A stretch of 64,000 nucleotides of DNA from Halorutilales archaeon Cl-col2-1 (GCA_041891055.1 CP169074.1:672001-736000), one strand, 5' to 3'; shown: positions 39,266 to 60,959, numbered from the stretch's first letter. Numbers and translations are program-made. Notes: generated by a model from the letters alone, not told the origin.

Positions 39266-39272
39266 TTTATAT
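39266..39272 (+). promoter_or_regulatory. TATA box for the C/D sRNA
   Basis: TTTATAT about 25 bp upstream of the predicted sRNA 5' end. Confidence 0.55.
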
Positions 39273-39293
39273 CTTAGCGGGCATAGAAAGACC

Positions 39294-39355
39294 GAGGCCG
39301 ATGACGAGACTCAGGACTGAACAGGAGGATGATGAACCCTATGAGTGCCGAGGCC
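39294..39355 (+). ncRNA. Box C/D guide sRNA, sR-tMet-like (predicted Cm34 guide for elongator tRNA-Met)
   Basis: Box C ATGACGA 39301-07, D' CTGA 39317-20, C' ATGATGA 39329-35, D CCGA 39348-51. The D guide ACCCTATGAGTG is antisense to CACUCAUAGGGU, and the D+5 rule lands on the C of the CAU anticodon. Terminal GGCC stem. Confidence 0.8.
39340..39353 (+). repeat. att site (left junction)
   Basis: TATGAGTGCCGAGG, identical to 45354-45367. Confidence 0.8.
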
Positions 39356-39813
39356 GACAACTATAGGACCAGCATTCGTCCTATAACTTCCAGAATGTGA
39401 CTTATAGTCGATATAATGCCAAATCCATAATTATCCAACTCACACAGCCACTGGTTGATATTGGTTGGAGATTAGAGACCGAACGACGAACAGCATAACA
39501 TTCAAGTCACGACCGAACTATCTGAATTAATATAGAGAGTTATGGTTGGTTCTTTGCGAGAAGTGCTCAGCGAGAACGAACCAGATACTCTAATAGCTAA
39601 ATTTTTATTCTTGCTAGTTTCTATATTTTCGTTACATAGCGCAGTTACAATCACAGTCTGGTGGCAGTCACTACCATTCTTTACGTTAGTTTTGATATGT
39701 GGACTACTGATCAGTGGGGGGTACGAGGATATCAAATTCACAGTGGTGAGGTTAGTTGGTATGGAGGTCACTAATTCTCAAGAAATCCGTACTACTAAAG
39801 AAGTCCAAGACCT

Positions 39814-41216
39814 CATTCGTCTTCACTTAACGGCGTAATCGAAGGATAGCAGTCGCTTATCGTGGCTCCTTTCCGAGAGGAGTGAGGAGGCGAGTCTGTG
39901 CAAGACAATGCCTCCTCACGACGAATTGAACGTCGGCTTACTACTCTTTTTCCGTCCGAGATGCTGGACGACCACGCCGAGGAGGTCGGCGTGGTCGAAC
40001 GTGACCGGGATCTCCAGATGCCTCCGCTGGTCTGGTCGCTTGTTCTCGGCTTTACTGCTGGTGAAAGCCGGTCGCTCGCTGATTTTCGACGCAGTTACAA
40101 CGCAACCGCCGATGACCCACTCTGTCCAAGTGGCTTCTATCAACGGCTGACGCCGACACTGGCGGAGTACCTGCGCGACCTCGTCGAGCGCGGTCTCGAC
40201 GAGGTCGCTGTCCCTCACACTGTCAGCGACGAGTTCAACCGATTTCGGGACATTATGAGTGCTGACGGCACTGTGCTTCGGTTACACGAGTTCCTTGCCG
40301 ATGCGTACGAAGGCCGCAAGGAGGAGCAGGCTGGAGCACGGCTCCACCTGCTCCACAACATCACCGAGCAAACTATCGACGACTACACGATCACCGACGA
40401 GAAAGACCACGACAGCACACAGTTTGACACCGGCCCGTGGCTCGAAGATCGGTTGGTGCTGTTCGATCAGGCCTACTTCAAGTACCGCCGATTTGCGCTG
40501 ATCGATGAGAACGACGGCTACTTCGTGAGTCGGCTGAAACCCGACGCAAACCCGGAGATCGTCGAGGAATTACGGGAATGGCGTGGCGACGCCATTCCCT
40601 TGGACGGCAAGCAGATTCACGATGTGGTCGATGATCTGTACCGCCAGCACATCGACGTAACGGTCGAAGCGGAGTTCAAACGCGGGCCGTACAACGGGAC
40701 ACGGTCGCTGGATACGAAGCGGTTCCGCGTCGTCGGCGTCCGCAACGAGGACGCCGACGACTACCACCTATATATCACGAATCTGCCTCAAGAAGAGTTC
40801 ACTTCTGAGGATGTAGCAACGGTATATCGGTGTCGGTGGGAAGCTGAGTTGCTGTTTCGGGAGTTAAAGACGCAGTACGAGCTGGATGAGTTCAACACGA
40901 GCAAAGAGCACGTGGTAGAGATTCTGGTGTACGCGGCACTGTTGTCGTTGCTGGTGAGCCGTGTGTTGCTTGATCTGGTCACGGAACACGCCGATAAGGA
41001 TATCGTGTTTCCGCCAGAGCGCTGGGCGGCGACCTTCCGGTCGCACGCCCAGCTTCTCCTGCATCGACTTGGTGAGTACCTCGGCTACTCACCACCGCCG
41101 CTGCTTGATCGGCTCATCGCTGAAGGACAGAAAATCCATCAGGAACGCCAAATCCTACAGGAAAAGCTCGCTACTGTCACGCAACCGACGGTGGAGGCCT
41201 AAACTGAAGACGAATG
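39814..41216 (+). mobile_element. IS4-family (ISH8-like) insertion sequence
   Basis: TIR CATTCGTCTTCA at both ends; 11-bp TSD GTCCAAGACCT (39803-13, 41217-27). Confidence 0.93.
39898..41202 (+). CDS. IS4-family DDE transposase
   Basis: ADGT, FDQAY, YRCRWEAELLFRELK (YREK motif). Confidence 0.93.
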   Translation: MQDNASSRRIERRLTTLFPSEMLDDHAEEVGVVERDRDLQMPPLVWSLVLGFTAGESRSLADFRRSYNATADDPLCPSGFYQRLTPTLAEYLRDLVERGLDEVAVPHTVSDEFNRFRDIMSADGTVLRLHEFLADAYEGRKEEQAGARLHLLHNITEQTIDDYTITDEKDHDSTQFDTGPWLEDRLVLFDQAYFKYRRFALIDENDGYFVSRLKPDANPEIVEELREWRGDAIPLDGKQIHDVVDDLYRQHIDVTVEAEFKRGPYNGTRSLDTKRFRVVGVRNEDADDYHLYITNLPQEEFTSEDVATVYRCRWEAELLFRELKTQYELDEFNTSKEHVVEILVYAALLSLLVSRVLLDLVTEHADKDIVFPPERWAATFRSHAQLLLHRLGEYLGYSPPPLLDRLIAEGQKIHQERQILQEKLATVTQPTVEA

Positions 41217-41343
41217 GTCCAAGACCTATTGAGCGATATCGACACACGTGACTTGGCAAAAATGGATGTGAATGAAGCGGAAGGGAAATTCCAATTCCAG
41301 TTTGATCGGGAGTAAAATATGATACAAGACAAAACCCAGAAAC

Positions 41344-42741
41344 ATGATTGACGAGAGAGAGTTCCGGGGCTATTGGTGGCTCCCTGAAAATCCTGATGAA
41401 AAAGTCGGTGGGATAGCATCCTTCACACCATCCGGTGGTGTTTCCTTAGAGTTGTTCTCTACTCTGAATGAGGATCCAGATTATATGGGTAGTGGCAACG
41501 TCTTTCGGCCTGATTTTATCCATGGAGTTACAACAGAAGGGGAGAGAATCACACTAAAGAACTGTATTCGAGGAAGCTATTCTATGTCTTCTTCGCAGGG
41601 GTCAGGGGTGACCAGTTCCAGCTATCAGGCGATCTCCCTCCTTTCCGGAGCACACTTCACGGAACAAATCAACTTTGACCGATTCCGTATGCAGTTCCCA
41701 CTTCTCACGAAGTGGGCAGGAGTTAGCGGTGTGAATTATTCTGGATCCGTTCTCGAAGGTGGAAAAGTTTCTGCAGGTGACACGTTCGAGATCAATTATG
41801 AATTTCCGGAATCGATCACCGCAGCATTAGACGATGTAGAACTCAAACTGATATTTAATGCTGACTTCAATATGGGGCGAGTTGGTGGTGCATCCATTGA
41901 CGAAGAAGCCTACTTTGACATTATCCCCGATTCGGGAAAGATATCATACGATGAAGCGATTGATTATACTGGAACGCTACAAGATTTTATAACCTTATCA
42001 ACTGGTAAAGAAGTTCAAGCATCCACCCTTATTGGACGATTAGAGCGGGAAAATCAACCGGGATATAATGACATAGAGATATTGTTCTCTACGGGTAGCG
42101 ATCTTAAGCTTCCGGATAGTCTACATCCCTATAAAGCGAATTTTGTCCTTGCAGATATCGTTGATGACTTCTCTGAGGTCATAGGCAATTGGTTCCAACA
42201 CTACGAGGAATTGGAACCTGTTTATAACCTCTATTTCAGCGTTCAGTATAATTCAGAGATGTATCTTCAAAACCAGCTTCTCTCTCTTACACAGGCGATA
42301 GAGACTTATCATAGAAGAGAAATCGGTGGCCAATACCTTTCTGATGATGAATTTGAGGAATTTTATGACGAACTTTGTGAGGTTATCCCTGATCAGTTTG
42401 ATGAGAGTTTCCAAGATCATTTGGAGAAGGGCACATTCAGATATGCGAATGAGTATTCGCTTAGAAAAAGATTGTCTCAATTGGTTTCAGAACAGGAAAA
42501 TATCCTTGATGAGTTGCCTATGAATATTGAGGCAAGCGTGAATAAGATCGTAAATACTCGGAATTATCTGACTCATTATGACGAGGGCATTTCTCCCCGT
42601 GCTGACACGGATGAACTCCATCCTCTAATTCTACGGTTGAGAGCTATCCTTGAAACTGTGCTTCTGTCGAATCTTGGAATACCAGAAGATCAGATTGTAG
42701 AGCGCCTCAAACAGCGCTACTCTGAACTCACAAGATCGTAG
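41344..42741 (+). CDS. ApeA-like protein (N-terminal ApeA domain plus C-terminal HEPN)
   Basis: GYWWLP start, QAIETYHR, SLRKRL, HEPN Rx4H motif RNYLTH; AT-rich. Confidence 0.8.
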   Translation: MIDEREFRGYWWLPENPDEKVGGIASFTPSGGVSLELFSTLNEDPDYMGSGNVFRPDFIHGVTTEGERITLKNCIRGSYSMSSSQGSGVTSSSYQAISLLSGAHFTEQINFDRFRMQFPLLTKWAGVSGVNYSGSVLEGGKVSAGDTFEINYEFPESITAALDDVELKLIFNADFNMGRVGGASIDEEAYFDIIPDSGKISYDEAIDYTGTLQDFITLSTGKEVQASTLIGRLERENQPGYNDIEILFSTGSDLKLPDSLHPYKANFVLADIVDDFSEVIGNWFQHYEELEPVYNLYFSVQYNSEMYLQNQLLSLTQAIETYHRREIGGQYLSDDEFEEFYDELCEVIPDQFDESFQDHLEKGTFRYANEYSLRKRLSQLVSEQENILDELPMNIEASVNKIVNTRNYLTHYDEGISPRADTDELHPLILRLRAILETVLLSNLGIPEDQIVERLKQRYSELTRS

Positions 42742-42759
42742 GGGTTAAGAGCCACAATT

Positions 42760-43495
42760 CCAAAATTTTGACACAAGATAAATATTCTTCTCTTGCATCT
42801 GATCAATCAACACGAGTATAGATGTCCATAGTCTCACTCTCCGAATCCCCACGGATGTACTGGAGGACGTGCTGTTTCATCTCCTGATTCCGCATCAAGG
42901 TCGTGAACACCGTCCGGAAGGTATGCGGTGTGAACTTCTTGTGGAACCGATCCTCGCCGTCCTCCATAATACCCTCGCTGACTGCCGCCTGACGTACGGC
43001 ACGCTGAACCACGGTCTTCGCCAGCCAGTCATCGCGGATACTCACGAACAGATAGTCCAGCTCTGTATCTCGCCAGATCAGCCTGAACCGCTTGATTGTC
43101 CGAATCGTCTCACGGTCAATCGGCACGACCGTCTGCTTCCCACATTTCCGCTCTCGGAGGCGAACGAATCCTTTGTCGAGCATCAGGTCGTCCATCTTGA
43201 TCTCCAAGGCTTCCTCCAACCGACATTCAGTCTTCGCCAGTAACACGGCGACGGCTTTGTTCCGTGGGTTCGGAATCGCCTTCACGATTTTCTTCGCGTT
43301 CTCCCAGGTCGCACAGTCCGAGCGTTGCCGGATCTGCTTCGGAATCTCCTCCAACACCACACCAGCCGGATTCCCAGTAATGTCGTCGAACCGAGGGCGC
43401 TTCATCGCGTAGCTGAAAAACACAGACAACGATTCGAGGTACCGACGTTTCGTGTTCTGACTGACTCCGCGGTCATCCAGGATACGCAGATTCCT
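42760..43495 (-). pseudogene. Tyrosine integrase, N-terminally truncated with a premature stop
   Basis: KTECR, RERK, PHTFR, RGD, DIY catalytic set. The frame continues upstream without a start (LDDRGVSQNTKRRYLESL) and past the TGA at 42803 (SDAREEYL). Ends approximate. Confidence 0.8.
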
Positions 43496-43560
43496 CTCTT
43501 GAGTGAGGAAAAGTCAGGGTACAGTGTTTAGTCGTTTGCAGTCTAAGTCCTGTTTCACGG

Positions 43561-43834
43561 TTGAACAATGATGATGTCAATGAGGCGATCCGTGAGGAGT
43601 ACGGTCTGAGCGGTGGTGAAGAAGAGGATGAAAGTGTCGAGTGCCATTTCTGTGGGGCGGAAAACAGTGATATCTACTGAATACAGGAGCTGTGGTAGAG
43701 CACTGAGTCTTGAGAATGGGTCGGCGAAAGAGGAGAAGCAAGATGTCTTAGAGCGGCTTAAGCAGCTTGATGATGAAGGAGTCCTGGATAAGCTGGAGGA
43801 TTTAGGAGAGGTTCAGTCCTCTGATGCCCGATGA
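43561..43834 (+). pseudogene. C-terminal remnant of a second integrase-like gene (Zn ribbon), frameshifted
   Basis: LNNDDVNEAIREEYGL...ECHFCGAEN, then YRSCGRAL in another frame; resembles the tail of archaeal Zn-ribbon tyrosine recombinases. Confidence 0.5.
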
Positions 43835-43873
43835 ATATATAAAATTCGGTCATTAATATTGACCGTGGTCATA

Positions 43874-44539
43874 ATGACAGACCAAACATCGCCAGGTGTC
43901 ATACTTCCTATCCCACTCGGTGAAGAACGAGTGTTCCGCAACCAAGCGATGGAAGACATAACAGAACTCCTATACAGAAACCCACACGAGGAATTCGGCG
44001 TACGACAACTTCGGGATATCACAGAACACGGAGCACAGACAACGGATACAGCGATAAAACTCCTTGAACAGGTCGACCTCATCCAAACCAGGAGAGAGGG
44101 GAACCAGAAGCTTATCAGCATCAACAGAGACCGGATACACAAACCCGATGACCCCATCCTAGAAATACCACAAGAAGAATTCAGAACCCCTGTGAACACC
44201 TTCGTGGATAGATTAGAGAACGATCAAAAGGACAACTTAGTCGGTGTTCTCCTGTTCGGTAGCGTGGCACGAGGCGAGGGCGATAGAGCCAGTGACATCG
44301 ACCTACAGGTGATCGTGGAGGAAGATCTACTGGAATCACGGAGAAGCATCCATGACATCAGACAGGAAGTCGAAGAGACGAGGTTCGGAGGAAACCGTTA
44401 CGAACTACAGGTTCTGGTAGAATCGGTAGACACCGCTGAGGATTACGGAGACAAACTTCACGAGATCTTCTCAGAAGCCATAACGCTCTACCAGACAGAC
44501 AAACTGGACGAACTACGAAAGGTGATTCTGGATGGATAA
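43874..44539 (+). CDS. HTH plus minimal nucleotidyltransferase (MNT) antitoxin-like protein
   Basis: LFGSVARGEGDRASDIDL; N-terminal wHTH. Confidence 0.85.
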   Translation: MTDQTSPGVILPIPLGEERVFRNQAMEDITELLYRNPHEEFGVRQLRDITEHGAQTTDTAIKLLEQVDLIQTRREGNQKLISINRDRIHKPDDPILEIPQEEFRTPVNTFVDRLENDQKDNLVGVLLFGSVARGEGDRASDIDLQVIVEEDLLESRRSIHDIRQEVEETRFGGNRYELQVLVESVDTAEDYGDKLHEIFSEAITLYQTDKLDELRKVILDG

Positions 44540-45026
44540 CAGCCATATTGAAGACAAGTTAGATGAAGTTCAGGAGCTCTTCGACAAGAGACCTGAAGAA
44601 ATAGAAACAGGGTTGGACGTCGACGGTGCTGAGATGCTCCAGTTACGGAAGGCATGTAGACTTCTGGAAGCAGCCAGACATCTGAAACAGGAGAACGGCT
44701 ACTACACCGTTGTCATAGAGGCTTCTTTCGCAGCGATAGAGAGGACGATCCAGTTCTACTTGGTAGACAACAACTTTCTGGATCCGGAGGAATACGTCGA
44801 CCACCGAGAAGTCTATGAGAGAGGTAGCAGAGCAGGACTATACAGCGACGGGTTCAAACAGAAGCTGATAGGTCTCTGGAGAGAAAACCGTTCACGCTCA
44901 TACTACCGAGAAGGCGTAGGCAGCAGAAAAAGAGCCGACAAGATGCTTGAACTCGCAGAAGGAGTACATAGCCACGTGACTCAGCTAGCCGGCAAAAGCC
45001 ACGAATGCATCTGCAACACGGCTTGA
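44532..45026 (+). CDS. HEPN-like partner protein
   Basis: Overlaps the MNT gene by 8 bp; helical, YYTVVIEASFAAIER, NRSRSYY. Confidence 0.65.
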   Translation: MDNSHIEDKLDEVQELFDKRPEEIETGLDVDGAEMLQLRKACRLLEAARHLKQENGYYTVVIEASFAAIERTIQFYLVDNNFLDPEEYVDHREVYERGSRAGLYSDGFKQKLIGLWRENRSRSYYREGVGSRKRADKMLELAEGVHSHVTQLAGKSHECICNTA

Positions 45027-45064
45027 CTACAAATATTTACTACGTGACTACCAAGTACTGCTGT

Positions 45065-45244
45065 ATGAACTGTTTTGCCAGAAGGATTGGAGAAGCTGAA
45101 GAACTCTTGGAAAAGGTAAAGTCCTGGAGCGAGGAAGAGATCGAGGAGTTACCTAAGCTTTACAGGGAAAAAGCAAGGGAATACAGGGGTCTTCTGCCAG
45201 ACCACTGGTCTTTTTCCACTGTTTCTTATCTTCTTCTGACATAG
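45065..45244 (+). CDS. Small hypothetical protein
   Basis: MNCFARRIGEAEELLEKVKSWSEEEIEELP...; the 3' end may be degenerate. Confidence 0.35.
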   Translation: MNCFARRIGEAEELLEKVKSWSEEEIEELPKLYREKAREYRGLLPDHWSFSTVSYLLLT

Positions 45245-45353
45245 TAGCTTCGACCTCTTTTTTGGCAGGAGACGAGCGGGTCTGTGCCCTCAACCTCGCA
45301 CATCAAACAACTACGCCTTAGCCTTTTTATTACCTACGCAGGCACCGAAAAAA

Positions 45354-45378
45354 TATGAGTGCCGAGGTCTCATCTTTC
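45354..45378 (+). repeat. att site (middle junction)
   Basis: Shares 14 bp with 39340-53 and 23 bp (TGAGTGCCGAGGTCTCATCTTTC) with 60937-59. Confidence 0.85.
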
Positions 45379-45501
45379 TATCCATACATTTCGGGAAAGA
45401 AGTGAACGAACGTCATAGAATCTCGTCTGCTACTCTCTGAGAAAGGACAGTCGTAATCAAAAGGCGAATAGAGTACACTCTGAGGCGTCACATAGGCTTA
45501 G

Positions 45502-45648
45502 TCAGTTCTTTGCTACTTGGGCCGAATAACTCTCCTCCATCCACTCCTCGGTGTGCTTGCGACTGGGGTAAATCGCAACGTAGGTCGTCTCTTCGGATAA
45601 CCCGACCTCGGTCTCCCACTCGGTCTGCTGTGGCTCGTCGTTGCTCAT
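45502..45648 (-). pseudogene. 48-aa fragment, possibly a truncated small DNA-binding protein of the integrated element
   Basis: MSNDEPQQTEWETEVGLSEETTYVAIYPSRKHTEEWMEE...; acidic, ends abruptly. Confidence 0.3.
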
Positions 45649-45785
45649 TCGTGTCTCACAGCAGACACTTACAACTGGACGTTCCTAGGCATTGTGGATA
45701 GATAGGTTCCATGTGTTGACCGTGGTTCTGCTGTCGAACTGATGCTGTCGTAAGAAATAACGGACAATCGTTTGATGAGAGAGTT

Positions 45786-47897
45786 ATGCAAACTCGTACC
45801 GAGACACTTGCCTCCTTGTATCAGGATGGATTCTTCGATATACCGTCATACCAACGTAGCTACTCGTGGGAGGAACCGCAGTTAGCGGACCTCATCGACG
45901 ACCTCCGTTATCTCCCCGAGGAAACCAACCACTTCTTCGGAAACATCATTCTCGACAAGAAGGACGAGCAGTATCAGACAGATAGGGGCAGGCGCTTCGA
46001 TGTCTACGACGTTGTTGACGGTCAACAGCGATTGACGACCGCGCTTATCCTCCTGCACGTCGCCACGCAGTTCGATGACGTGGTCGACGAGACCGTGTCG
46101 GAGGACAATCTGATATTCCCCGTTGACGAGCGCCCCCGTCTGATGCCGCAGGACCAGGACGGGGAGTTCTTTCGGGACAGTCCATTCGGTAGCGCGAGTT
46201 TAGAGTGTGAAACCCCGTCGCAGGAACGTCTCGAATACGTAAAGGAGTATTTCGAGTCGGAATTTGAGGACCTGCCCGTTCGAGAGATATCCGAACGGCT
46301 GCGCTACGACTGCAAAATCAACGTCGTCGAGATAGACAGCGACTCGGAGGCGGCGTCGATTTTCGAGAGCCTGAACGACCGCGGGAAGCCCCTATCATCG
46401 CTCGACAAAACGAAGAGCTTCCTGATGTATATGGACGACCGCTCCAGCAATCAGGGTGCTCTTGAGACGAAAATCAAGCAACGGTTCGGGAGCATCTACC
46501 GCGAGCTGTTCGTCCTCTCGAACGGGCATGACAGAGTGAGCGATTTCGACGAAGACAGTGTGCAACGGTTCCACTGGGGAATCTACGACGGATACGATTC
46601 TGACGAGTACTTCAGCAGTCTCGATACGCTCAAAGACAGACTCCGAGAGCGATACCGTAACGGCGAGTACGATACCGTTCAGGACGAAATTGACGAGTAC
46701 ACGCTGAATCTTCGTGAAGCAGCGTCGGCGTTCGCTGCACTGTTCAATCCTTCACAGCGTCCCGACGAAGTCGAATCCGCACTGAAACGTCTACTCGCAC
46801 TCGGGAGGGTTGCGAACGTTCTCCCCGTCCTGATTGCGGCACAGATGGAGTACGGTGACGATGAACCGGATAAGATGGCGGATATCATTCGCGCCTGCGA
46901 GACACTCGTCTTCCGCGTCTACGCAACCGATGGCAGGCGGGCCGATACGGGACGAGGTAGGTTAGTTCGCCTCGCTCATTCGATTCATGCAGACGATTCG
47001 TATCTGTTCGAGGACGTACTCAATCGTCTCGACTCGATTACCCGCATCTACACCGACGATGACCGCTTTGAGCGCAACCTTCGTGACCCTGACTTCTACG
47101 AGTCAATGTCGAGCCAGGACATTCGCTACTTGTTCTACCACTACGGGCAGAACCTAGACATCGAGATACGCGAAGACGTACAGCGCGACCTCGAACAAAT
47201 CCTCTCTACCTCATTCGAGGTCGAACATATCCTCGCTCGAAAACTCCCAGAGGAAGACATCCCGGAGGACCTGCGCGAGGAGTTTGACGACCACGTCCAT
47301 CGTCTCGGGAACCTCACCGTTGCGAGCGAATACTGGAACAAGAACTACGGCAACCTCCCGTTCGAGCAAAAGAAGATTGCTCCCGAGGGACGCGAAGCAG
47401 AATACAAATCATCGAACCTGCGAGTGCAGCAGAGCCTTGCCGACTATGACGAGTTCGGACGGGCAGAGATTGAGGAGCGGGAACAGAAGATAGTCGACTT
47501 TGCACTCGAAGAGTGGGGGATTGCGTCTGAGCCACAACCGTCCGGGGGGTCGAGTACCGACGAGGGCTCTGATGAGGTAGAGTACGAGAGTCTTCCGGAC
47601 AGTTTCTTCCGGCGGTTGACGAACCGACAGGAGGCGTTCATTCGAATCCTGCTCGATAACGGGAACTGGATGATGAACGAGGATGTCCGTCAGCAGATGG
47701 AGGACGACTATGACCTTGCAACGGGCGGTGGTCAAGCGATATCCGGCATCCTCTCGGGGTTCACCCGGAAATACAGCGAGGACTTCACGTATCGTCTCAT
47801 CGATTACGAATGGATGGGCGACCAGATGCAGTATCGTCTGAATCCCGACTCGGGATACATTGACGAACTACGTGAGCGACTAGAAAAGAATGCCTGA
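45786..47897 (+). CDS. DUF262 plus DUF1524 (GmrSD-like) nuclease with extra C-terminal domain
   Basis: IPSYQRSYSW, DGQQRLTT, FESLNDRG; HNH-type EHIL...LGNL...N. Confidence 0.9.
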   Translation: MQTRTETLASLYQDGFFDIPSYQRSYSWEEPQLADLIDDLRYLPEETNHFFGNIILDKKDEQYQTDRGRRFDVYDVVDGQQRLTTALILLHVATQFDDVVDETVSEDNLIFPVDERPRLMPQDQDGEFFRDSPFGSASLECETPSQERLEYVKEYFESEFEDLPVREISERLRYDCKINVVEIDSDSEAASIFESLNDRGKPLSSLDKTKSFLMYMDDRSSNQGALETKIKQRFGSIYRELFVLSNGHDRVSDFDEDSVQRFHWGIYDGYDSDEYFSSLDTLKDRLRERYRNGEYDTVQDEIDEYTLNLREAASAFAALFNPSQRPDEVESALKRLLALGRVANVLPVLIAAQMEYGDDEPDKMADIIRACETLVFRVYATDGRRADTGRGRLVRLAHSIHADDSYLFEDVLNRLDSITRIYTDDDRFERNLRDPDFYESMSSQDIRYLFYHYGQNLDIEIREDVQRDLEQILSTSFEVEHILARKLPEEDIPEDLREEFDDHVHRLGNLTVASEYWNKNYGNLPFEQKKIAPEGREAEYKSSNLRVQQSLADYDEFGRAEIEEREQKIVDFALEEWGIASEPQPSGGSSTDEGSDEVEYESLPDSFFRRLTNRQEAFIRILLDNGNWMMNEDVRQQMEDDYDLATGGGQAISGILSGFTRKYSEDFTYRLIDYEWMGDQMQYRLNPDSGYIDELRERLEKNA

Positions 47898-49074: not shown

Positions 49075-49083
49075 CAACGGGTA

Positions 49084-52000: not shown

Positions 52001-52989
52001 AGCGTCGATTCGACTGCCTGGGAGAATCGCGTTATATCGGAATCGCTAACGCGGTCACCGACGACCGTTTCGAGCTGTTGTCCTGAGAGCTGGGCCGACT
52101 GATCTCCGGCGAGCAACCGCTTTGCAGCCGTATTCGCGAACTCGATATCACCTTGCTCGTCGAGGACGAACACGACGTCGTGGATGTTCTCCAGAATCGC
52201 GTCACTGCGCTCTAGCTTCAGTTCCCGTTCTCGCTCGGCAGTAATTTCGCGTGAAAAGACGGTCAGCCCGTCCTCGTCCGGGAACGCTCGCACTTCGACC
52301 CAGTAGCCGAACGGCTCTCCCAGCCGCTGTTCGAACGATACCGGTTCACCAGTCTCCATCGCCGTTCGATACTTGTCTTCGAGTTCCGTCCCGACGATCG
52401 ACGGGAACTCTTCCCAGATGGTTTCTCCGACAACCGCGTCCGGGTCACGTTCGACTCGCTCGGCCATCTTCTCGTTTATATACTCGATGCGCCAGTCGCT
52501 ATCGACGGCGTAAATCGCGTCAGTCGCGCGTTCGAGCGTTCGTCTGAAGCGCCGTTTCGTCTGCTCGGCCTCCGTGCGCTTGCGAGCAGCCCTCGTGAGT
52601 GTCCGGATGCGGGCCGCGAGCAGTGTGAAGTTATCACGCTCCGACCGGACTGGGATGTATTCCGAGACGCCGGCACGAGTCGCTTCGCTCGCGATCTCCT
52701 CACTCCCTTGTCCAGTAAAGAGGATTATCGGGATATCATCGTTCTGCTGGCGAATCGACTCCGTAAGCCCGATGCCGTTCGAATCGTCGAGCGAGTACGC
52801 CGTTACGATACAATCGATCCGGTCCGCAGCAAGATTGCGCAGTGCTTCGTCGATACCGTCGGCAGGTATATAGTCGATCTCGGTACTCGTTTGTTGGAGC
52901 TTGGTTTGAACCAACTCCGCGAACGCGGGATCGGAGTTCACGTAGAGGACGCGGATAGGATCGTCGAGTTCGTCAGTAGTACCGAGCAC
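49084..52989 (-). CDS. Multi-sensor histidine kinase (REC-PAS/GAF array-HisKA-HATPase)
   Basis: AHDLRNPL, ENLFRNA, DTGSG, GTGFGL; several PAS and two GAF segments. Confidence 0.92.
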   Translation of the reverse strand: MLGTTDELDDPIRVLYVNSDPAFAELVQTKLQQTSTEIDYIPADGIDEALRNLAADRIDCIVTAYSLDDSNGIGLTESIRQQNDDIPIILFTGQGSEEIASEATRAGVSEYIPVRSERDNFTLLAARIRTLTRAARKRTEAEQTKRRFRRTLERATDAIYAVDSDWRIEYINEKMAERVERDPDAVVGETIWEEFPSIVGTELEDKYRTAMETGEPVSFEQRLGEPFGYWVEVRAFPDEDGLTVFSREITAERERELKLERSDAILENIHDVVFVLDEQGDIEFANTAAKRLLAGDQSAQLSGQQLETVVGDRVSDSDITRFSQAVESTLDEIESDGGSTGLYDADLQLDVVAGTSERTFDVRVTPFQSRKSKQVLVVARDVTEQSEVKRQLERERDALQDLQAVMAESDVSAESRLQNLLEVGCQTLGLEIGIVSRIQDSDYTVEAAHAPEADIEAGDQFNLESTYCAEVVGTDSVCSFVDAVSDGKETHPAYRDFELESYIGVPLVVDGTRYGTVNFSSPTTRVAPFGALERTFVELVAELVSAELSRRRDHTELERQGFLFDRVQDIADVGIWEFIPSSGELIWSDGVRQIHGVDEDYEPSLDDAIEFYHPDDRETITAAVDRAIEDGEPYDLDLRIVRTDGEVRHVRAWGEYVEDTPRGDAVLRGVFQDITEREAERHQYRELAEEYEALLETSGDAIFLLDVDTAGEDPSFKFARLSPGYETQTGLTTEEVRGKTPREVFGDEQGAELEANYTRCVEQRAPISYREELDIGEDARFWETSLAPVVVDGETVRVVGIARNVTEQVERERELEATNQRLESLIEATPLTVMEIDTDGTVIRWNDEAETMFGWSQDEVLGEFNPMVPDEQQEEFASHRQRVLNGERIRAKEIRRETKDGDELDLLLSVAPVTGPDGETTSILAVLEDITEQKRLEVRLRSLQDTAQSLSGAESSDEIGAIAVDAAAEILDLDVTGIWEYNERENALVPITETSAARDLFGESPRFTPGDSLAWDAFESGETQVYNDVQAEGQPHNPNTEIRSEILVPLGEYGLMSTGSVSTQVFSETDVDLFRILAATVEAALARASREEELHRQNERLDQFASVVAHDLRNPLSVAIGFLEIAEETGNAEHFEKVESAHDRIERLIEDLLTLARGETTIEDAEEIDLEDITTEAWGYVDTGEATLTVADGVPEVTGDAGRLTQLFENLFRNAVEHGGADVTVTVGGLDEANGFFVEDTGSGIPQEKQDDVFNHGVTSSDGGTGFGLSIVADIAKAHGWTVSVTDGSNGGARFEFKRSK

Positions 52990-53138
52990 AGTTACAGAGA
53001 TTTAACTCCCTAACTGGTTAAACATTTCCTGCGAGACACTCCGGGGAGCTATCAAGCTCTCTAATGACCAGACAAGTGCAATTCTCGGGGGTCGGTATGT
53101 CGGTCAATTTAAGGAAAAGGGACGGATATTCCACTAGT

Positions 53139-53510
53139 ATGCCTGCGGAAATTCTGGCTGCTGACGACGACGAAGATATCAGAGAAATGATCGATGTTAG
53201 TCTCAGTGGGGATTTTGACGTCGAGACTGTAAAAGATGGCCGAGAGGCATGGGAGTACTTAGAACAGTCCCCGGGTTCACTACCGAAAGCGGTCATTCTC
53301 GACGTCATGATGCCAGAGATGGACGGGTTTTCGGTTCTGGATCGCATCCGGGAGAACGACGAGATGCAGGATATTCAGGTTATTATACTGACATCTCGGA
53401 GTCGGGAGGAGGACATCGTTCGAGCGCTCGAGGCAGGCGCGGACGATTTCCTGGCGAAGCCCTTCAATAAATCCGAACTGTACGGACGTGTACAGCAAAC
53501 TCTCGAGTAA
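53139..53510 (+). CDS. Stand-alone response regulator receiver
   Basis: ADDD, LDVMMPEMDG, LTS, KPF. Confidence 0.92.
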   Translation: MPAEILAADDDEDIREMIDVSLSGDFDVETVKDGREAWEYLEQSPGSLPKAVILDVMMPEMDGFSVLDRIRENDEMQDIQVIILTSRSREEDIVRALEAGADDFLAKPFNKSELYGRVQQTLE

Positions 53511-53563
53511 GCGACCGTACAGAATTGAAACAGTAAAGGTGCATTAGCTGGTAGATAGTCACA

Positions 53564-54730
53564 ATGTGGGTGGCCACACTAGTCGCCGTGATCGGTCTCT
53601 TGAGCGTCGGGGCCATCACTCAGTTCACCGGGTATCGTATGGGAGGGTCAATCACCATTCCCGTTCTTGCCGTGTACTCTTTGAAGAACTTCGTCATGCT
53701 CCCCGTTTTTGTGTTGAGCGCGGCAGCCGCGTACGTCGGCCTGTGGATCCTCCGTCGTCGAACATTGATATTTGGTCGTGACGAGCTCATCGCAGCGATG
53801 GTCATCGGCACAACCGTTCCAGTAGTCACGCTCTTTTTCATCCTGCAATTAGGACTTGAGGTGGGAGTGGTTGCGTTTCTGGGAAGTATTCTCCCTGGAC
53901 TCGCAGCGTACAATTACCATCGAATCAAGCCGGAGTATCGCCGAAACGACCTCTTGGCGAGTATCGGGTTGTTCGTTACCCTCACTGCGCTCGGTTGGGT
54001 ACTGGTTTCCAATGGATATGCGCGTGAATTTGGTGCGCTGACGCCCCCAGTCCTCTTCTCTTCGACTGCAGACGTCGCTAGTTTCAAAGGTGTTGCAGTG
54101 TCACTCGATCCCGAATCTGTCATACTCCCTCGAGAAATCGTGGCCGGACTGTTCGCTGGTGGGCTCGTTCTCTCTGAACGGCTCCGGGATCGGTTCGGTG
54201 TTCGTGTCGGGATCGTCGGTGCGGTCCTCCTCGCGATTTATGCGCTAGCGAGCTATTGGCTCGTGATTCTGTACGTCATTTTGCTTGCGCTATCGTTCGG
54301 CTTCATCCAGTTGTCGAACTACCTCACACTCCGGTACGGACGAGTCCTTCTCGGAGTGACTGTCGCAGTCGCGATCTTCGCTACAGTATCGCTGACGTTT
54401 GTCTTACCGATTGAGCGAGGACTGTCGGCGTTCTTTACTGCGATTTTGGCAGGTGTCGGGGCGTACAACGCGCATGCGTCAGCACCATTCGAGCGCCGCC
54501 TCGTCGTCCCGCTTCAGATCGTGGTCTTTGTCCCCGCTTTGATCGTCGCTCGACTGTTCAGTGCTCTCCAACCTCGTGGGTTTCCACAAGAGCTGACGTT
54601 GCCTGTCCTGGGGATTGCAGCGGTTCTCTGGGTGGCTGCCCTGGGTGTCGCGTACTGGTATACTGTGTCACCCCCGGGTGAAGATGAGGTTCTCTCTGCG
54701 TCGGTTCTCTCTGAAGGGGGTGAAACATGA
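53564..54730 (+). CDS. capC: Poly-gamma-glutamate biosynthesis membrane protein CapC/PgsC (tandem domain)
   Basis: TGYRMGGSITIP, LIFGR, GSILPGLAAY; second repeat FGVRVG...LRYGR; coupled to capB (ATGA). Confidence 0.75.
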   Translation: MWVATLVAVIGLLSVGAITQFTGYRMGGSITIPVLAVYSLKNFVMLPVFVLSAAAAYVGLWILRRRTLIFGRDELIAAMVIGTTVPVVTLFFILQLGLEVGVVAFLGSILPGLAAYNYHRIKPEYRRNDLLASIGLFVTLTALGWVLVSNGYAREFGALTPPVLFSSTADVASFKGVAVSLDPESVILPREIVAGLFAGGLVLSERLRDRFGVRVGIVGAVLLAIYALASYWLVILYVILLALSFGFIQLSNYLTLRYGRVLLGVTVAVAIFATVSLTFVLPIERGLSAFFTAILAGVGAYNAHASAPFERRLVVPLQIVVFVPALIVARLFSALQPRGFPQELTLPVLGIAAVLWVAALGVAYWYTVSPPGEDEVLSASVLSEGGET

Positions 54731-56367
54731 GTCGGACTGCCTTCGAGATCTACGGCCGTGGGTTCGGCTGGTCGTGGCGTCTTAGGGGCCCAGCGGAGGT
54801 ACTAGCAACCGGCAGCCGCCACTACGACACATCCCGAGCAGCACGCGAAGCAATTGATCTCGTTCGCGCCGCTGTTACAGAACTATCGGGGAACGAAGAG
54901 TCCTTCCCAGACACCGACGTCGACGCCCCCGACATCATCGTCGAACGAGAGGCCACACCGTCGGGAGAACTCCCGGAAGAACGAAACAACTGGGTCTGGC
55001 GGCTCCAAACTGCAAACGGGGTACTGGGACATAGTGCCGATCGCTTCCCGACGGAAGTGGCAGCACAGTCCGCGGCGGACCAGTTCCTCGACTATGCGGC
55101 GGGGGCGCTGCCGATGTTCTTGGTTGGGGCGGAGTACGAGTGGAAGACCGGCCCGAAGCCAATCGAAGTCGGCTCGTCGAGTTTGACAGGACTGGTCAGT
55201 GAAATAACGAGAGGTATTCGACATCGTAAGGTCCTCGATCAGATCGATACCCAGATTGTCGTCTCGGGGACTCGCGGTAAATCCTCAACCACCCAACGGC
55301 TCGACGACGTCTTCAACCGCCGAGGGTACGACACGCTCACGAAGATCACCGGCAACCATCCACTACTGATCCACAACGGCGAGGTCCATCCTATCGAACG
55401 ACGGGGGCCTCGAACGACGCTCTACGAGAATATCAGTCTCATCGCTGAGTTCGTCCCCGAACTCGATGCGTACGAGCCGGACGACGTCGCTATCTTCGAG
55501 AATCAGGGTATCACAGAATACACGACCCGGCTGTTCAACCAGCGTCTGACCGATCCGGACATCATCGTGTTAACAAACGTCCGTCAGGACCACACAGATA
55601 CCCTTGGAAAGACCAGGACAGACCTTGCACGTTCGTTTGCGCGGTCGGTCCCAGCGGGAACACACGTTGTGAGCGGCGAGCAACACCCGGTGTTGCACGA
55701 ATATATGCAAAAAGAGATCGAACGCCGCGGAGGGACTATCGAGCAGGTTGATATTCCCGACGAACACGAAGGGCTAATCGGTTCTGAAACGATCCACGCA
55801 GTCAATGTGGTGTTAGATGTTGTTGGCGAACCGCCACTTCCAGCCGAGGAGATCGAATCGTTCCTCAGTGCGATCCAACCAACGTGGATAGAACTTGAAG
55901 ACGGACTCATCTTCAACGCTGCCGAGGTGAACGACGTCGAAAGTACTGAGATGGTTCGACGGGTGCTCGTCGATGACGAATGTATCACCCCGTTCGTGTA
56001 CCTCCGAAGAGACCGGCGGGGGCGTACAGCGTCATTTGCTCAATATATCGAGTTGCTATTCGAGCGAGAGTTAATCGATGAAGCTCACATCGGTGGGGCT
56101 AACACACGCGCATTCGCCGAAAACGTCGATGTTCCAACCAAGTGCCACAGTCAAAATGCGGACCCAGAGCAGGTTCTAACTGAACTGTTCACCGATGGCC
56201 GACCGGTCATCCTCATGGGTAACACGGTGGACGAGTTTATGCGTGAGATGCAGGCGTCGATTGAACAACGAGTGAAAGAGAAAAGACAGGCTGCCTCGGC
56301 AAGCGAAGCTGTTGACATTTCTGAACAGGGGAGCGCGGAAGCGACTAAACCAAAAGATCACGAATAA
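54727..56367 (+). CDS. capB: Poly-gamma-glutamate synthase CapB/PgsB-like Mur ligase with N-terminal DUF1508-like repeats
   Basis: VSGTRGKSSTT, KITG, TNVRQDH, NDVEST, RRDR..R, MGN. Confidence 0.8.
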   Translation: MSRTAFEIYGRGFGWSWRLRGPAEVLATGSRHYDTSRAAREAIDLVRAAVTELSGNEESFPDTDVDAPDIIVEREATPSGELPEERNNWVWRLQTANGVLGHSADRFPTEVAAQSAADQFLDYAAGALPMFLVGAEYEWKTGPKPIEVGSSSLTGLVSEITRGIRHRKVLDQIDTQIVVSGTRGKSSTTQRLDDVFNRRGYDTLTKITGNHPLLIHNGEVHPIERRGPRTTLYENISLIAEFVPELDAYEPDDVAIFENQGITEYTTRLFNQRLTDPDIIVLTNVRQDHTDTLGKTRTDLARSFARSVPAGTHVVSGEQHPVLHEYMQKEIERRGGTIEQVDIPDEHEGLIGSETIHAVNVVLDVVGEPPLPAEEIESFLSAIQPTWIELEDGLIFNAAEVNDVESTEMVRRVLVDDECITPFVYLRRDRRGRTASFAQYIELLFERELIDEAHIGGANTRAFAENVDVPTKCHSQNADPEQVLTELFTDGRPVILMGNTVDEFMREMQASIEQRVKEKRQAASASEAVDISEQGSAEATKPKDHE

Positions 56368-56446
56368 AACGTCAGCTTCTGTAAGAAGCGGGCCTTTTCG
56401 TTAGATGTAGACGTGTTCTTGAGGGGGCCAGAACGATTGTCCGGTA

Positions 56447-58120
56447 GTGGCCATTACTACTGAATCTCGGAGAACCGTCTTTCGACAAATTGCACGACTG
56501 TCGTACGTTGAGTGGCCAGCGTACGATTCGACACCGTTGTACGACCGCACCTCACTTACCGGATTAGAGTCGGATGTCCGGATCGTCTCAGGAGCTTGGT
56601 TCACGCACCATGAGCACATCTCTGTTGAGCAGTTCGTCTCCGAACTTCCGCTGGCCTACTTCCAATTCGAGGCCCACGACTGCTACGAGGATCCGACACA
56701 CTACGAGATGGACACCCTGTTTCGCGTGTTCGTTCTGAAAGAACTTCACGGATGGGAGCACGAAACAGCACTCTACGAGTACCTCGAAAGTCATCCGGAA
56801 CTTTGCGAGCGGCTTGGGCTGGAGACAGTGCCTGACCAATCGACACTCTGGCGCAGTTGGCACACACGCTTCACTGATGAGTTTCGCGAGACGATCCAGA
56901 AAGCGGCTCGAACGATCCTCATCAAAGCGCAGAACGCCGACGTCACCGTCCCCCGCGAACCGGAGCAGATTCTCCCAGCTCGTGATGACGTGGACGAATC
57001 GGTTCCAGACGATCGAGCCATTCTGGACAACGCCGATAGAGTCACCAAGCACGTCAGCCGTGTCGTCTTTCCCGCGTTCTCTCTGGATCGTGGCGACAGC
57101 TGTGAGATCCACGAGAACGCCTACTGGGACTTACAAACGTACCTCGGACTTCGCGAGCGGCTGGCTGCAAACGAAGGTGCTCGTAGTTTCCTCTACGAGT
57201 CGACTCGGGATCGGACACCGCTGGGGCACGCCCATCGCGAGCAGATTCGGGACCTCTCGATTGAACAGATTCGAGCGATGTACCGGCAGGCCATCACTCG
57301 GCTCCTGAACGAAGTTGCGGAGACAGAGCAGTTCTTTCGAGCCGGAGTTGTCGCAATCGATATTACCGAAGCTGACCCGTTCACCGGCGATAGAACGGGC
57401 TACGAAGACGAGATCATCGGGACGAAAGAGAAGACTGACGAGTACGCCTATCAGTGGGCGACGGTCCAGTTAGTCGGCAATGCCGTTCCGCTCGTGCTTG
57501 ACGCACGACCGGTTCGACGAGGAGAGTCACGCAAGGAAATCGTCGAGGACTTGCTGGATTCGGCTGAGGACCTCGTTCACGTCGATAACGTGCTGATGGA
57601 CCGGGAGTTCGATAGCCAGCACGTTCTGGAGATGATCAGCCAGTGCGGGCTCTCATACGTCGTCCCGAAACGGATGCAGACCAGCGAGAAAGCCCAGGCC
57701 AAGCGATTGCTCCAGCGCGATCAAGACCGGTATGAAACCGACCGGAAGCTCCACCTTGGCAAGAACGAGTGGCACGAGAAGACGCTAATCTACCGCCGGA
57801 AAGAGGAATCCGAGCACGACGATCACCGGCAGTATTCGGTGTTCATGACGAATCGGGGGAGCGGACACCTTACGGAGTACGGCTACCGGTGGGAAATCGA
57901 GAGCGGCTACAGATCGATCAAACGGTTCATGGCTGCCACCACGTCGAAGGATTTCGGGCTGCGATTCTTCTACTTCGCGTTCGCGTGTCTGCTGTACTCG
58001 ATCTGGCGGGCTGTCGATCTGCTCGTGCAGGTTGAGTTGACTGGTGAGTACGAGCACTCGCCGATGGTGACGGCAGATAACACACTGACACTGCTGAAGA
58101 AGGAGACTGGAATCGGATAG
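56447..58120 (+). CDS. DDE transposase (IS4 superfamily, ISH3-like)
   Basis: VPDQSTLWR, AIDIT, MDREF, YGYRWEIESGYR. Confidence 0.85.
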   Translation: MAITTESRRTVFRQIARLSYVEWPAYDSTPLYDRTSLTGLESDVRIVSGAWFTHHEHISVEQFVSELPLAYFQFEAHDCYEDPTHYEMDTLFRVFVLKELHGWEHETALYEYLESHPELCERLGLETVPDQSTLWRSWHTRFTDEFRETIQKAARTILIKAQNADVTVPREPEQILPARDDVDESVPDDRAILDNADRVTKHVSRVVFPAFSLDRGDSCEIHENAYWDLQTYLGLRERLAANEGARSFLYESTRDRTPLGHAHREQIRDLSIEQIRAMYRQAITRLLNEVAETEQFFRAGVVAIDITEADPFTGDRTGYEDEIIGTKEKTDEYAYQWATVQLVGNAVPLVLDARPVRRGESRKEIVEDLLDSAEDLVHVDNVLMDREFDSQHVLEMISQCGLSYVVPKRMQTSEKAQAKRLLQRDQDRYETDRKLHLGKNEWHEKTLIYRRKEESEHDDHRQYSVFMTNRGSGHLTEYGYRWEIESGYRSIKRFMAATTSKDFGLRFFYFAFACLLYSIWRAVDLLVQVELTGEYEHSPMVTADNTLTLLKKETGIG

Positions 58121-58364
58121 AGAGACACTCAGTCTGGGTTAGCGCGCTGTCTGAGTGGCTACACTGTTGGATGTCTCGAAAATTCGCCCTTACGGTTGTA
58201 AATGTGACAAGAATGCCGCTTGGAGAGAGAATTGAGGTAGTTTCTGCTGACTAACTCGGCAAAATCCACGCATTACAACCCTGCTATACCTGTTGTAGTC
58301 TCAACTTCCCTATTGTTGAACAAATCCATGATGAGGTCGAATAACGACGATACTGACAGTGATG

Positions 58365-59093
58365 CTAAACCGACTTCGTGTTATTGACAGCGTCTTCTAG
58401 CAGACTCAGAAAATCATTATCGTATCGCTCGTCGACGTGATTCACATTCCAAAGACCGGATTCCCGAATCTCTCGACTACAACTGTATCGACCGAGCCAT
58501 CCATCGGCTCGCGAGTCAATTGTTTGCCCATCGAAATTGCTGAGGAGGGCAATAACATTCCGTTCGAGGTACGCTCGGTCGCTGTCAGCACTCGGTTCGT
58601 CGTCGAGATTCACCCAGAGAAACGGCTGTTCGCGGATGTACGCACTCACTCGTCGTTCGAGGATATACTCCTCCTCACGGACTTCTGACCGCTCACGCTC
58701 AATGCTTGACCAGCGTTTGTCCCAGTCGGGGTAGTCGTCGTGCAGGTCGTGCTTCTCGATAATCGCCTCTCCGACGCGCTTACGATATACAGAACCGCGA
58801 TGAGCGCCCCCATGAGGATGGTTGGAACTCCCGCTGCCTGTTCCGTAGTGTTGTTTCAGCCTATCCCAGAGCTATGTGCTGCTCCCCGCAGACACCGCGT
58901 GTGTCCCCACGCGAGTAACGCGCAACTGGTCAGTCGAGGCGCGTGTTTCGCCCGGTTCGAGGAAGAAGTAGACGCCGCGGTCAGGCCAGTCCATGTACCC
59001 GGTGCAATTTTTGAGTTTCCGTGTACCGTCGACTCGTTTCTCGAGGTCGTCGAGTAACCCATAGAAGCGGTCGAGGTCATCCTGACGGGCCAT
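58365..59093 (-). pseudogene. GIY-YIG-like nuclease with a single in-frame TAG at 58872-74
   Basis: RGVYFF...RVGT...*LWDRLKQH. Both track ORFs (58872-59093, 58365-58649) are in one frame and read through as about 242 aa. Confidence 0.7.
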
Positions 59094-59146
59094 ATGGTAG
59101 AACGTGCGAACCTTGATACTTCGAGGTTTGGAACAATCGTAGCAAT

Positions 59147-60157: not shown

Positions 60158-60186
60158 GATAATTCGACTATGATCGACGATAGCAG

Positions 60187-60810
60187 CTAAAAGAACTCGT
60201 TCATGATTCGGGTTCGCTCAGGAGAATCGATATTGTTGAAATGTTCTGTGTCAAGATGTTGTCCTGCATTCCATAAGTTCCCTAGGTTTGACGAGACTTC
60301 GTACTGGTCAACTGTATCTACATCTACGACGAATACTGATATCTGACTATTCGGAGTCACAATTAGTATGCCCTCCTCAATGCCTGTATCGTCTGGAAAT
60401 CCAGATATGTGATATGCCCCTTGTCGAAAGTCCTCGCCGGTCATCCCGAACTCGAATGCGATAAGAGAGTCGCCCTGTAGTTCCCCGAAAGGATTGAGAT
60501 ACTTAAACAGAGTATGAAGACGTCCTTGGTTTTCTTTGATTCTTACTCGGTCAGGGGTCAAGCGTGCTGAATAGCCCGTACCCGTGAAGTCGTCTAACTC
60601 ATATGCTCGAGACCCACCAATTACCTCGTCTATTTTCTGCTCTCGTTCAAATCGTGAATCAAGAACAGAATTCCGATGAGAAATATACTGAAGAACCAAA
60701 GACACCGTCGCAACAAAAATTGGTGCTGCTAGAAGTGCGGTTTCTGCACTAATACTTGTGAGACCTGAAAACAGCCCTGAGACGAATTGAAATATCTGCT
60801 CACAGACCAT
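60187..60810 (-). CDS. Hypothetical membrane-anchored protein
   Basis: AT-rich ORF with one N-terminal TM segment. Confidence 0.55.
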   Translation of the reverse strand: MVCEQIFQFVSGLFSGLTSISAETALLAAPIFVATVSLVLQYISHRNSVLDSRFEREQKIDEVIGGSRAYELDDFTGTGYSARLTPDRVRIKENQGRLHTLFKYLNPFGELQGDSLIAFEFGMTGEDFRQGAYHISGFPDDTGIEEGILIVTPNSQISVFVVDVDTVDQYEVSSNLGNLWNAGQHLDTEHFNNIDSPERTRIMNEFF

Positions 60811-60936
60811 ACATATGAAGAAAGCACAACCCAACTCTACTTACCATTGTCTCTCTCGATGGGACAAACAGAATTACGGACTGAGCGTACTCTATAGCCG
60901 CGCTAAACACATTCACTATGGATAGATTGTGAGTCG

Positions 60937-60959
60937 TGAGTGCCGAGGTCTCATCTTTC
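60937..60959 (+). repeat. att site (right junction; displaced 3' end of the sRNA gene)
   Basis: TGAGTGCCGAGGTCTCATCTTTC; its GGTCTC can pair with the sRNA 5' GAGGCC. Confidence 0.85.

Follow-up and report, generated by a model that had tools for sequence, protein, structure and literature searches.

Integration of mobile elements at the 3′ end of tRNA and transfer-messenger RNA (tmRNA) genes is textbook knowledge, and genomic islands at such genes of bacteria were reportedly described by Williams in 2002. In the accessible text of a review of archaeal elements, the targets named other than tRNA genes are protein-coding genes or intergenic regions only (PMC8371274), and the available part of the report on SNJ2, an element of Natrinema, places its 14-bp core in tRNA-Met (PMC5861418). 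Here, we analysed a 64,000-nucleotide (nt) stretch of Halorutilales archaeon Cl-col2-1 (GCA_041891055.1 CP169074.1:672001-736000, hereafter the window), in which an array of inserted DNA follows a C/D-box guide small RNA (sRNA) gene, sR-tMet. The last 12-14 nt of this gene very probably constitute the chromosomal attachment site (attB) of a haloarchaeal family of integrative elements, which would be moved by a 310-amino-acid (aa) XerC/D-like tyrosine integrase encoded downstream of a 177-aa gene. Repeats of this core, conserved arms around it, an empty site, tandem arrays and the integrase gene within core-bounded segments anchored at the sRNA were all directly seen in the sequences compared.

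As far as the available descriptions go, these elements resemble SNJ2 and other archaeal tRNA-targeting elements in their short core (about 14 bp), which occupies the 3′ end of a gene for a small stable RNA, in leaving that gene intact, in moving a partial copy of it to the far end and in carrying a tyrosine integrase with a small co-transcribed partner gene. Unlike in SNJ2, the target is a C/D-box guide RNA gene and the partner gene lies upstream of the integrase. With the bacterial islands they share the logic of landing in a conserved, structured small-RNA gene that allows a broad host range, although both the RNA class and the domain of life differ. sR-tMet would represent a third class of small stable RNA gene serving as integrase landing site, after tRNA and tmRNA. 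No paper linking a C/D-box sRNA gene with an attachment site was found in a full-text literature search, the coverage of which leaves out many journals and supplements. For archaea, attachment sites not located in tRNA genes are generally listed as 'intergenic'; the part of the SNJ2 paper at hand mentions three elements with such sites (PMC5861418), some of which could be the sR-tMet site.

The sR-tMet gene and its repeated core

The feature at 39296-39355 (plus strand) was identified as sR-tMet by a full-length match to Rfam family RF02163 (model positions 1-72, 49.3 bits, E-value 9e-9 in a scan of 39200-39450). Default Rfam and tRNA scans of the window returned no match, the former because the score falls 0.7 bits below the curated cut-off of 50, a shortfall caused by an internal loop of 7 nt here versus 19 nt in the model. 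The gene of a sister species from the same genus (G001) is nearly identical and also scores 49.3 bits, and RF02163 was present in 54 of 61 relatives and in 37 of the 37 high-quality genomes. In the accessible literature, sR-tMet of haloarchaea is described as a C/D-box RNA that guides Cm34 formation in elongator tRNA-Met (PMC4033218, citing Joardar et al. 2011). Its D guide is complementary at 12 of 12 positions to the intron-bearing pre-tRNA-Met (G000:C1:941767-941778), a gene recognised by eye where ARAGORN gave no call, and the fifth base before box D (CCGA) pairs with C34 of the CAU anticodon. The inserted DNA comprises a composite left part, A (segments A1 and A2), and a right part, B. 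The features that define the site and the borders of the array are the following (window positions):

38493..39254, plus strand: nif3 (DUF34/NIF3), left chromosomal flank; PF01784, E 1.3e-59; G001 protein 96% identical
39266..39272, plus strand: TATA-like box TTTATAT, ~27 nt upstream of the sRNA; same sequence in G001
39296..39355, plus strand: sR-tMet, with box C, D′ guide, box D′, box C′, D guide, box D (CCGA) and terminal stem, from the RF02163 alignment
39342..39355, plus strand: core copy 1, left attachment site (attL) of the array; final 14 nt of the sRNA gene
39356..43491, no strand assigned: A1, segment unique to this genome, with an insertion sequence (IS), ApeA and an integrase pseudogene
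42755..43480, minus strand: tyrosine integrase pseudogene; PF00589, E 1e-20; residues 69-310 of the 310-aa family
43492..45355, no strand assigned: A2, older cassette common to G001; 96-98% identical to G001 L034 6098-7819
45356..45378, plus strand: core copy 2, A/B junction; 23 nt identical to copy 3
45374..45504, plus strand: conserved left arm of B; 82-92% identical to left ends at sR-tMet in L040, L044, L055, L065, L066 and others
45529..45648, minus strand: remnant of the 177-aa partner gene, first 40 codons; tblastn 85% identity to L040 partner residues 1-40
60873..60936, plus strand: conserved right arm of B; 77-98% identical to right ends of at least 20 elements
60937..60959, plus strand: core copy 3, right attachment site (attR) of the array, then native flank colinear with G001
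60966..62153, minus strand: ychF-type Obg-like GTPase, right chromosomal flank; PF08438, PF01926, TGS; G001 protein 97% identical

The 12-mer TGAGTGCCGAGG occurs three times in the window, always on the plus strand, at 39342, 45356 and 60937, and these are its only copies in the whole 2.06-Mb genome. Copies 1 and 2 are identical over 14 nt (39340-39353 and 45354-45367) and copies 2 and 3 over 23 nt (45356-45378 and 60937-60959); exact search thus reproduced the positions and identities given by a first-pass annotation of this DNA. Dinucleotide-preserving shuffles yielded a mean of 0.02 matches, and none out of 100 contained three copies. Within the core, seven bases belong to the guide, followed by box D and the beginning of the terminal stem (GGCC); at the 3′ end of sR-tMet it is usually extended by CC. 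The 14-mer of copy 1 (39342-39355) also ends sR-tMet in most relatives. An overlapping 14-mer, TATGAGTGCCGAGG, was exact in 26 of 38 sRNA copies, and 7 of the 38 had a natural G-to-A variant of the core. The repeat hence corresponds to the 3′-terminal 12-14 nt of a conserved guide-RNA gene that is probably functional.

The view that the first core copy belongs to the D guide and box D of a complete C/D sRNA was upheld by the full-length RF02163 match; the upstream TTTATAT box may act as its promoter. The terminal stem has 4 bp in this genome versus 6 bp in G001, and the stem GAGGCC/GGTCTC that had been predicted upon deletion of the island does follow from the sequence at core copy 3. Boxes C and D correspond to the C/C variant of the RF02163 family, and boxes C′ and D′ show the canonical U/U form. 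When read by eye, the internal boxes at 39317-39335 are canonical CUGA and AUGAUGA in this genus; the RF02163 consensus has CCGA and GACGA in both box pairs, of which the outer pair alone keeps C/C here. Both sides of the internal pair change together, which fits a paired kink-turn (K-turn) position.

It had also been proposed that each element regenerates the guide and box D upon integration. This is true but trivial: since the gene ends with the core, whose 12-14 nt are identical in both partners, only the 3′ flank changes. Integration is predicted to alter the 3′-end formation of the guide RNA, and an unusually long 3′ extension of sR-tMet in Haloferax volcanii was reportedly noted by Joardar et al. 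in 2011. The core would hardly vary because base pairing with the tRNA-Met anticodon loop, box D and closure of the terminal stem all depend on it; these three constraints would be the reason why one attachment site works across dozens of genera. As a separate observation, sR-tMet is present in two full-length copies, 2.0-2.3 kb apart, in each of two genomes from family f11 (L035 5150-7630 in G042, L036 5790-7880 in G056), with a gene for a beta-helix protein in one case and an ABC1 kinase in the other between them. This duplication covers the whole sRNA and not the core alone.

Composition and history of the window array

In G001, nif3 and the sRNA match the window with 96% identity as far as position 39355. 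They are followed by 205 unrelated bases, by a homologue of window 43492-45378 and then by the sequence from 60941 onward with ychF. Position 45378 is therein joined directly to 60941 via a single core copy, so that B (45368-60936, 15.6 kb) is absent with exact borders. A1 is missing from G001, and A2 is present in both species. Metagenome contigs from sequencing runs X1-X4, compared with the G001 locus, displayed the G001 arrangement only and no informative joints, those of X1 and X2 with 0 differences; these two are probably not independent of G001 and likely represent the source of that genome. Barring an additional loss, the comparison shows that B entered the distal core copy after the split of the two species. 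A2 predates B, because G001 has A2 without B, and the simplest history has A2 in place before A1 and B joined it in this lineage.

The first-pass annotation had proposed the opposite order, in which two complete elements integrated at an intact site, B before A. The longer identity between copies 2 and 3 (23 nt) than between copies 1 and 2 (14 nt) would fit B having duplicated the native site before A arrived. We consider this history unlikely, however, since G001 holds A2 next to a single core copy, which would call for an extra precise loss of B, and since A is a composite whose left segment (39356-43491) is absent from that species. X1 and X2 show the G001 arrangement as well, with the dependence on G001 noted above. 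Two elements in tandem had been claimed: core-bounded tandem insertions were indeed found, but A is not one clean element, as its left 4.1 kb is not in G001 and its integrase is broken. The search for an empty site in relatives succeeded for B and failed for A, A2 being in both species and A1 being replaced by the 205 unrelated bases.

With A2 preceding A1 and B, the window is shown by comparison to hold a fossil array of what appear to be two or three tandem elements. It is a fossil because the integrase copy is truncated and that of B was lost by deletion. The guanine plus cytosine (GC) content is 0.49 in A1 and 0.48 in A2, and 0.55-0.58 in the flanks. Two attempts to place A among the other elements were abandoned: A-type ends were considered for A1, where the likeness is weak (AACTAT...ACC) and BLAST gave no arm homology, and the homology between the A2 nucleotidyltransferase pair and a pair beside the L062 array is confined to the coding region and says nothing about element ends. 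As to the neighbouring genes, nif3 and ychF are neighbours in the same orientation in L061, L062, L048 and L049, from several other families, where they precede sR-tMet by a few kb. This genus has ychF downstream of the sRNA and in the opposite orientation, and therefore the neighbourhood has been rearranged.

B-type elements, their integrase and how they may move

The ends of B were not restricted to this genus. In many haloarchaea, the sRNA is directly followed by the same sequence that follows core copy 2 in the window. Five out of five genomes chosen for this B-type left flank had the core a second time in the same orientation, 2.6-10.8 kb downstream, preceded by a right arm matching window 60897-60936. 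Homology at the B-type ends extends over ~130 nt on the left and ~65 nt on the right, and inverted repeats of 10 nt (TATGGATAGA and TCTATCCATA) stand on both sides of the core. The right arm plus core motif GGATAGNNNNNGAGTCGTGAGTG, with at most 1 mismatch, was detected in 65 of 401 genomes of the order, belonging to 41 of 117 genera, and a reversed-motif control gave 0 matches everywhere. A longer exact form of the motif hit 55 stretches among 185,579 prokaryote species, all of them haloarchaeal by record title. When 20 loci were fetched by the motif alone, 18 had sR-tMet within 17.5 kb upstream on the same strand; in a 19th (G146) it was located 53.7 kb upstream, with four core copies. Conversely, 36 genomes taken by their sRNA match contained 38 sRNA copies, 11 of which ran straight into a recurrent element end (6 B-left, 4 A-left, i.e. 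of a second type, and 1 mini-cassette), the other 27 having unrelated flanks. Two genomes of one genus with an identical sRNA differed in that G054 carried an element and G008 none. The recurrence of B-type ends and core at sR-tMet across the order agrees with the annotation's description of the site as a repeated integration hotspot, and the right arm plus core provides a simple sequence handle for variable, defence-rich haloarchaeal DNA.

The integrase open reading frame (ORF) of the window encodes 208 aa that are 59-71% identical to proteins of 310-341 aa in 6 of 25 other loci, in each of which a gene of 170-177 aa lies just upstream. In an alignment inspected by eye, the R, HxxR and Y columns of tyrosine recombinases are conserved. 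Residues 1-68 are missing and one TGA occurs four codons after the catalytic Tyr (tblastn, alignment), from which we conclude that the gene is a pseudogene; it is the sole member of the family in this genome. Regarding B, the first 40 codons of the partner gene remain, divergent from the GmrSD gene and with the same spacing as in L040 (G019), while comparison with the element of L044 (G010) revealed that ~1.3 kb holding the integrase are missing. The G019 integrase combines PF00589 with an N-terminal SAM-like domain, and its 10.8-kb element also encodes a Prim-Pol protein and a GmrSD protein 85.6% identical to that of the window. G199 likewise has an intact element with an integrase of this family.

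A search of the 61 relatives that did not select on the attachment site found the family (E ≤ 1e-60) in 7 genomes. In 5 of these (G000, G019, G010, G012 and G027) the hit belongs to a segment that runs from sR-tMet to a second core copy, and the intact homologues that the annotation had suggested looking for were thus located, in other genomes, in core-bounded segments starting at sR-tMet. Hits close to the sRNA are those of G000, G019, G010 and G045, the last at 12 kb on the downstream side, where the search gave no further exact core copy. The hits of G012 and G027 are 0.6-0.9 kb away from the second core copy and lie 95 and 87 kb beyond the sRNA, also downstream. A Natrinema plasmid encodes an integrase 64.5% identical, and neither core nor arms were present within 9 kb of the gene. 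In a phage collection, the best matches were bacterial phage XerC/D-like proteins with ~25% identity; an SNJ2-type integrase was also considered and set aside, having no haloviral match there at E ≤ 1e-3.

On these grounds, we propose that a circular element would carry the 14-nt core between the ~65-nt right arm and the ~130-nt left arm, and that the integrase would exchange strands inside the core between the circle and the sRNA gene. Such an exchange would keep the mature sRNA, swap its 3′ flank and send a second core copy to the far end, where it could serve as the next target. Elements would pile up in tandem because the displaced core copy is itself a target, and copies devoid of an integrase could be moved in trans by those bearing one. 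In the window, comparison shows that A1 (ApeA, IS and the 5′-truncated integrase) entered the sRNA-proximal core copy and later lost its right junction by deletion; B entered the distal copy, and its own integrase is deleted.

The inverted repeats near both ends, of 9-10 nt (TATGGATAGA/TCTATCCATA; in the second type GTCGGTAAT/ATTACCGAC), could instead be the terminal inverted repeats of site-specific transposons, with the core as their target-site duplication, and the lack of an integrase in most short copies would suit this explanation. It is nonetheless very improbable: the repeats are set back from the element tips by 5-11 nt, the arms, at about 65 and 130 nt, are both long and asymmetric, the only gene pair common to the larger elements is the tyrosine integrase with its upstream partner, no common transposase being found, and the supposed duplication is always the same sequence, with exactly one core copy per tandem junction. 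That the three copies are local duplications or chance matches, and the intervening DNA ordinary chromosome shuffled by the two IS elements of the interval, can be dismissed, given the 0 of 100 shuffles with three copies, the conservation of B's ends in dozens of genera, the absence of B with exact borders in G001 and the low GC content of A.

Several observations weigh against integrase-mediated insertion at sR-tMet. No genome in the comparison showed the site empty of A as well, and the non-coding ends of A matched no other element in the sample compared by BLAST. The integrase family was found in 7 of 26 sources (25 loci plus the window); as most short elements have no integrase, their mobility in trans is only inferred. 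This genome retains no intact member of the integrase family, so nothing can be mobile here at present and excised circles are unlikely. As for a free circular form or its attachment site (attP), the junction gave no phage match, one partial plasmid match and 0 matches in viral contigs. In G046, a B-type array with an intact integrase (C1:905043-912562) is located 512 kb from the sRNA gene; the sRNA of this genome has a G-to-A change in the core, and its flank starts like the B left arm and then diverges. Similarly, three right-arm junctions of G005 (C1:1106234, 1686925 and 1717678) lie far from its sRNA. These distant junctions may reflect rearrangement or a second site. The tRNA-Trp intron was tried as second docking site in G046 and rejected, since its native context is syntenic with G015 and it is not an array border. 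The C/D guide in this intron (L126 1420-1560, minus strand, C1:~889420-889560) ends in GAGTGCCGAGGC, which has 12 nt in common with the core; it could be a latent secondary target, or both guides could share an origin.

Other element types, long arrays and cargo

A second element type has different arms (left ...AACTATTACCGAC, right GTCGGTAATAATT...) in the same geometry around the core, with inverted repeats GTCGGTAAT and ATTACCGAC; in both types the repeats measure 9-10 nt and stand at about the same spacing. In G039, one element of the second type is followed by two B-type elements in tandem. Cassettes of ~920 bp combine the right arm of B with a different left end and contain two small overlapping ORFs, one of which has a weak PIN match (E 3.5e-4, below Pfam's cut-off). 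Their nucleotide identity among five genomes of three families is 83-86%, while for comparison nif3 is 67-71% identical in three of the same genomes and ychF 81% in two others, which suggests that these cassettes spread horizontally. At the other extreme, core-bounded segments starting at sR-tMet reach 94.8 kb (G012:C1:497043-591856) and 86.8 kb (G027:C6:105926-192747), both with the integrase near the distal core, and in the latter the repeat extends to about 24 nt.

Halfvol4 of H. volcanii may belong here. The accessible text of its description treats it as one integrated plasmid, with a flank devoid of tRNA and circles that were not detected; the main text does not ascribe the repeat to an RNA gene and contains neither 'snoRNA' nor 'box C' (PMC12091111). 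The 53.7-kb array of G146 coincides in end coordinates and length with those printed for Halfvol4. It starts at sR-tMet (68.2 bits), has four core copies (three perfect 14-mers and one with 13 of 14 matches) and holds two integrase-partner pairs of the 310-aa family. We read it as three putative tandem elements of 31.8, 19.3 and 2.6 kb, in place of the single integrated plasmid published (PMC12091111). The identity of Halfvol4 with an sR-tMet array, G146 being equated with H. volcanii by coordinates alone, is a strong lead and offers a testable reading of a well-known Haloferax element.

Taken tentatively, sR-tMet might act as an order-wide exchange platform. At least three kinds of element (B-type, second type and the 0.9-kb two-gene cassettes) would use the same 14-nt core, mostly without an integrase of their own and moved in trans, in arrays of 1 to more than 90 kb; Halfvol4 would be a three-element array and the 3′ extension in H. 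volcanii an element-derived flank. Tandem accretion of integrative elements and integrase-less 'cis-mobilizable' elements are known from streptococci. The present arrays likewise place attachment-site-flanked segments without recombination genes in tandem with elements having them; unlike the streptococcal ones, they lack conjugation genes, except possibly in the large arrays, and their mobilisation in trans is putative. As in integron arrays, one platform site gathers small cassettes of 1-3 promoter-poor genes split by a conserved junction, but no integrase gene is fixed beside the platform and the junctions, ~200 nt long, have two asymmetric arms, one to either side. Upstream of sR-tMet, the genes vary among genomes (nif3 here), with no integrase among them. 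Pipolins, according to the text available, are also integrative elements with direct repeats, in their case tRNA-derived, that collect and exchange defence genes (PMC11551731); the present elements lack PolB, although one intact relative has a Prim-Pol gene.

Besides the border features listed above, the array contains the following genes:

39802..41216, no strand assigned: IS of 1415 bp with a DDE_Tnp_1 transposase, within A1
41344..42741, plus strand: ApeA-type HEPN defence gene; PF18862, PF18739; PADLOC PDC-S58
43859..44539, plus strand: nucleotidyltransferase in A2; Pfam Polbeta, NTP_transf_2; PADLOC PDC-M05A, PDC-S09
44532..45026, plus strand: weakly HEPN-like partner in A2; HEPN match E 0.049 only
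45786..47897, plus strand: GmrSD-type (DUF262/DUF1524) nuclease, B; Pfam; PADLOC HEC-06
47890..49074, plus strand: AspBHI-like/Mrr methyl-directed nuclease, B; Pfam; PADLOC mREase_II
49084..52989, minus strand: hybrid PAS/GAF histidine kinase, B; Pfam
53064..53510, plus strand: response regulator, B; Pfam
53564..54730, plus strand: CapC-like gene, B; Pfam
54727..56367, plus strand: Mur-ligase/CapB-like gene, B; Pfam
56447..58120, plus strand: IS transposase, B; Pfam
58406..59093, no strand assigned: fragmented ORF, B; 86% nucleotide identity to an ORF in L043
59147..60157, plus strand: Mrr-type nuclease, B; PADLOC PDC-S02, E 3e-111
60187..60834, minus strand: ORF with no assigned function in the Pfam scan, B

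The defence-type cargo detected with PADLOC and Pfam thus consists of ApeA/PDC-S58, the PDC-M05A/S09-type nucleotidyltransferase, GmrSD/HEC-06, the AspBHI-like nuclease and the PDC-S02/Mrr nuclease. These five genes or systems support the term 'defence islands' used in the annotation, which is only partly apt because about half of B is not made of defence genes: it encodes the histidine kinase, the response regulator, the CapB/CapC-like proteins and an IS. The kinase, response regulator, CapC and CapB module is 41-67% identical to that of element L061 of G218. Elements of other genomes carried a PAS kinase with a response regulator and a KaiC-like protein, a PGA_cap protein or a GH5 glycosidase. 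The IS at 39802-41216 has a 99% identical copy on contig C2 (101981-103395) and appears to have been recently active. Genes related to poly-gamma-glutamate or capsule synthesis (CapC-like, Mur-ligase/CapB-like and PGA_cap) recurred at the site, in the window (53564-56367) and in L061, L053, L042 and L067.

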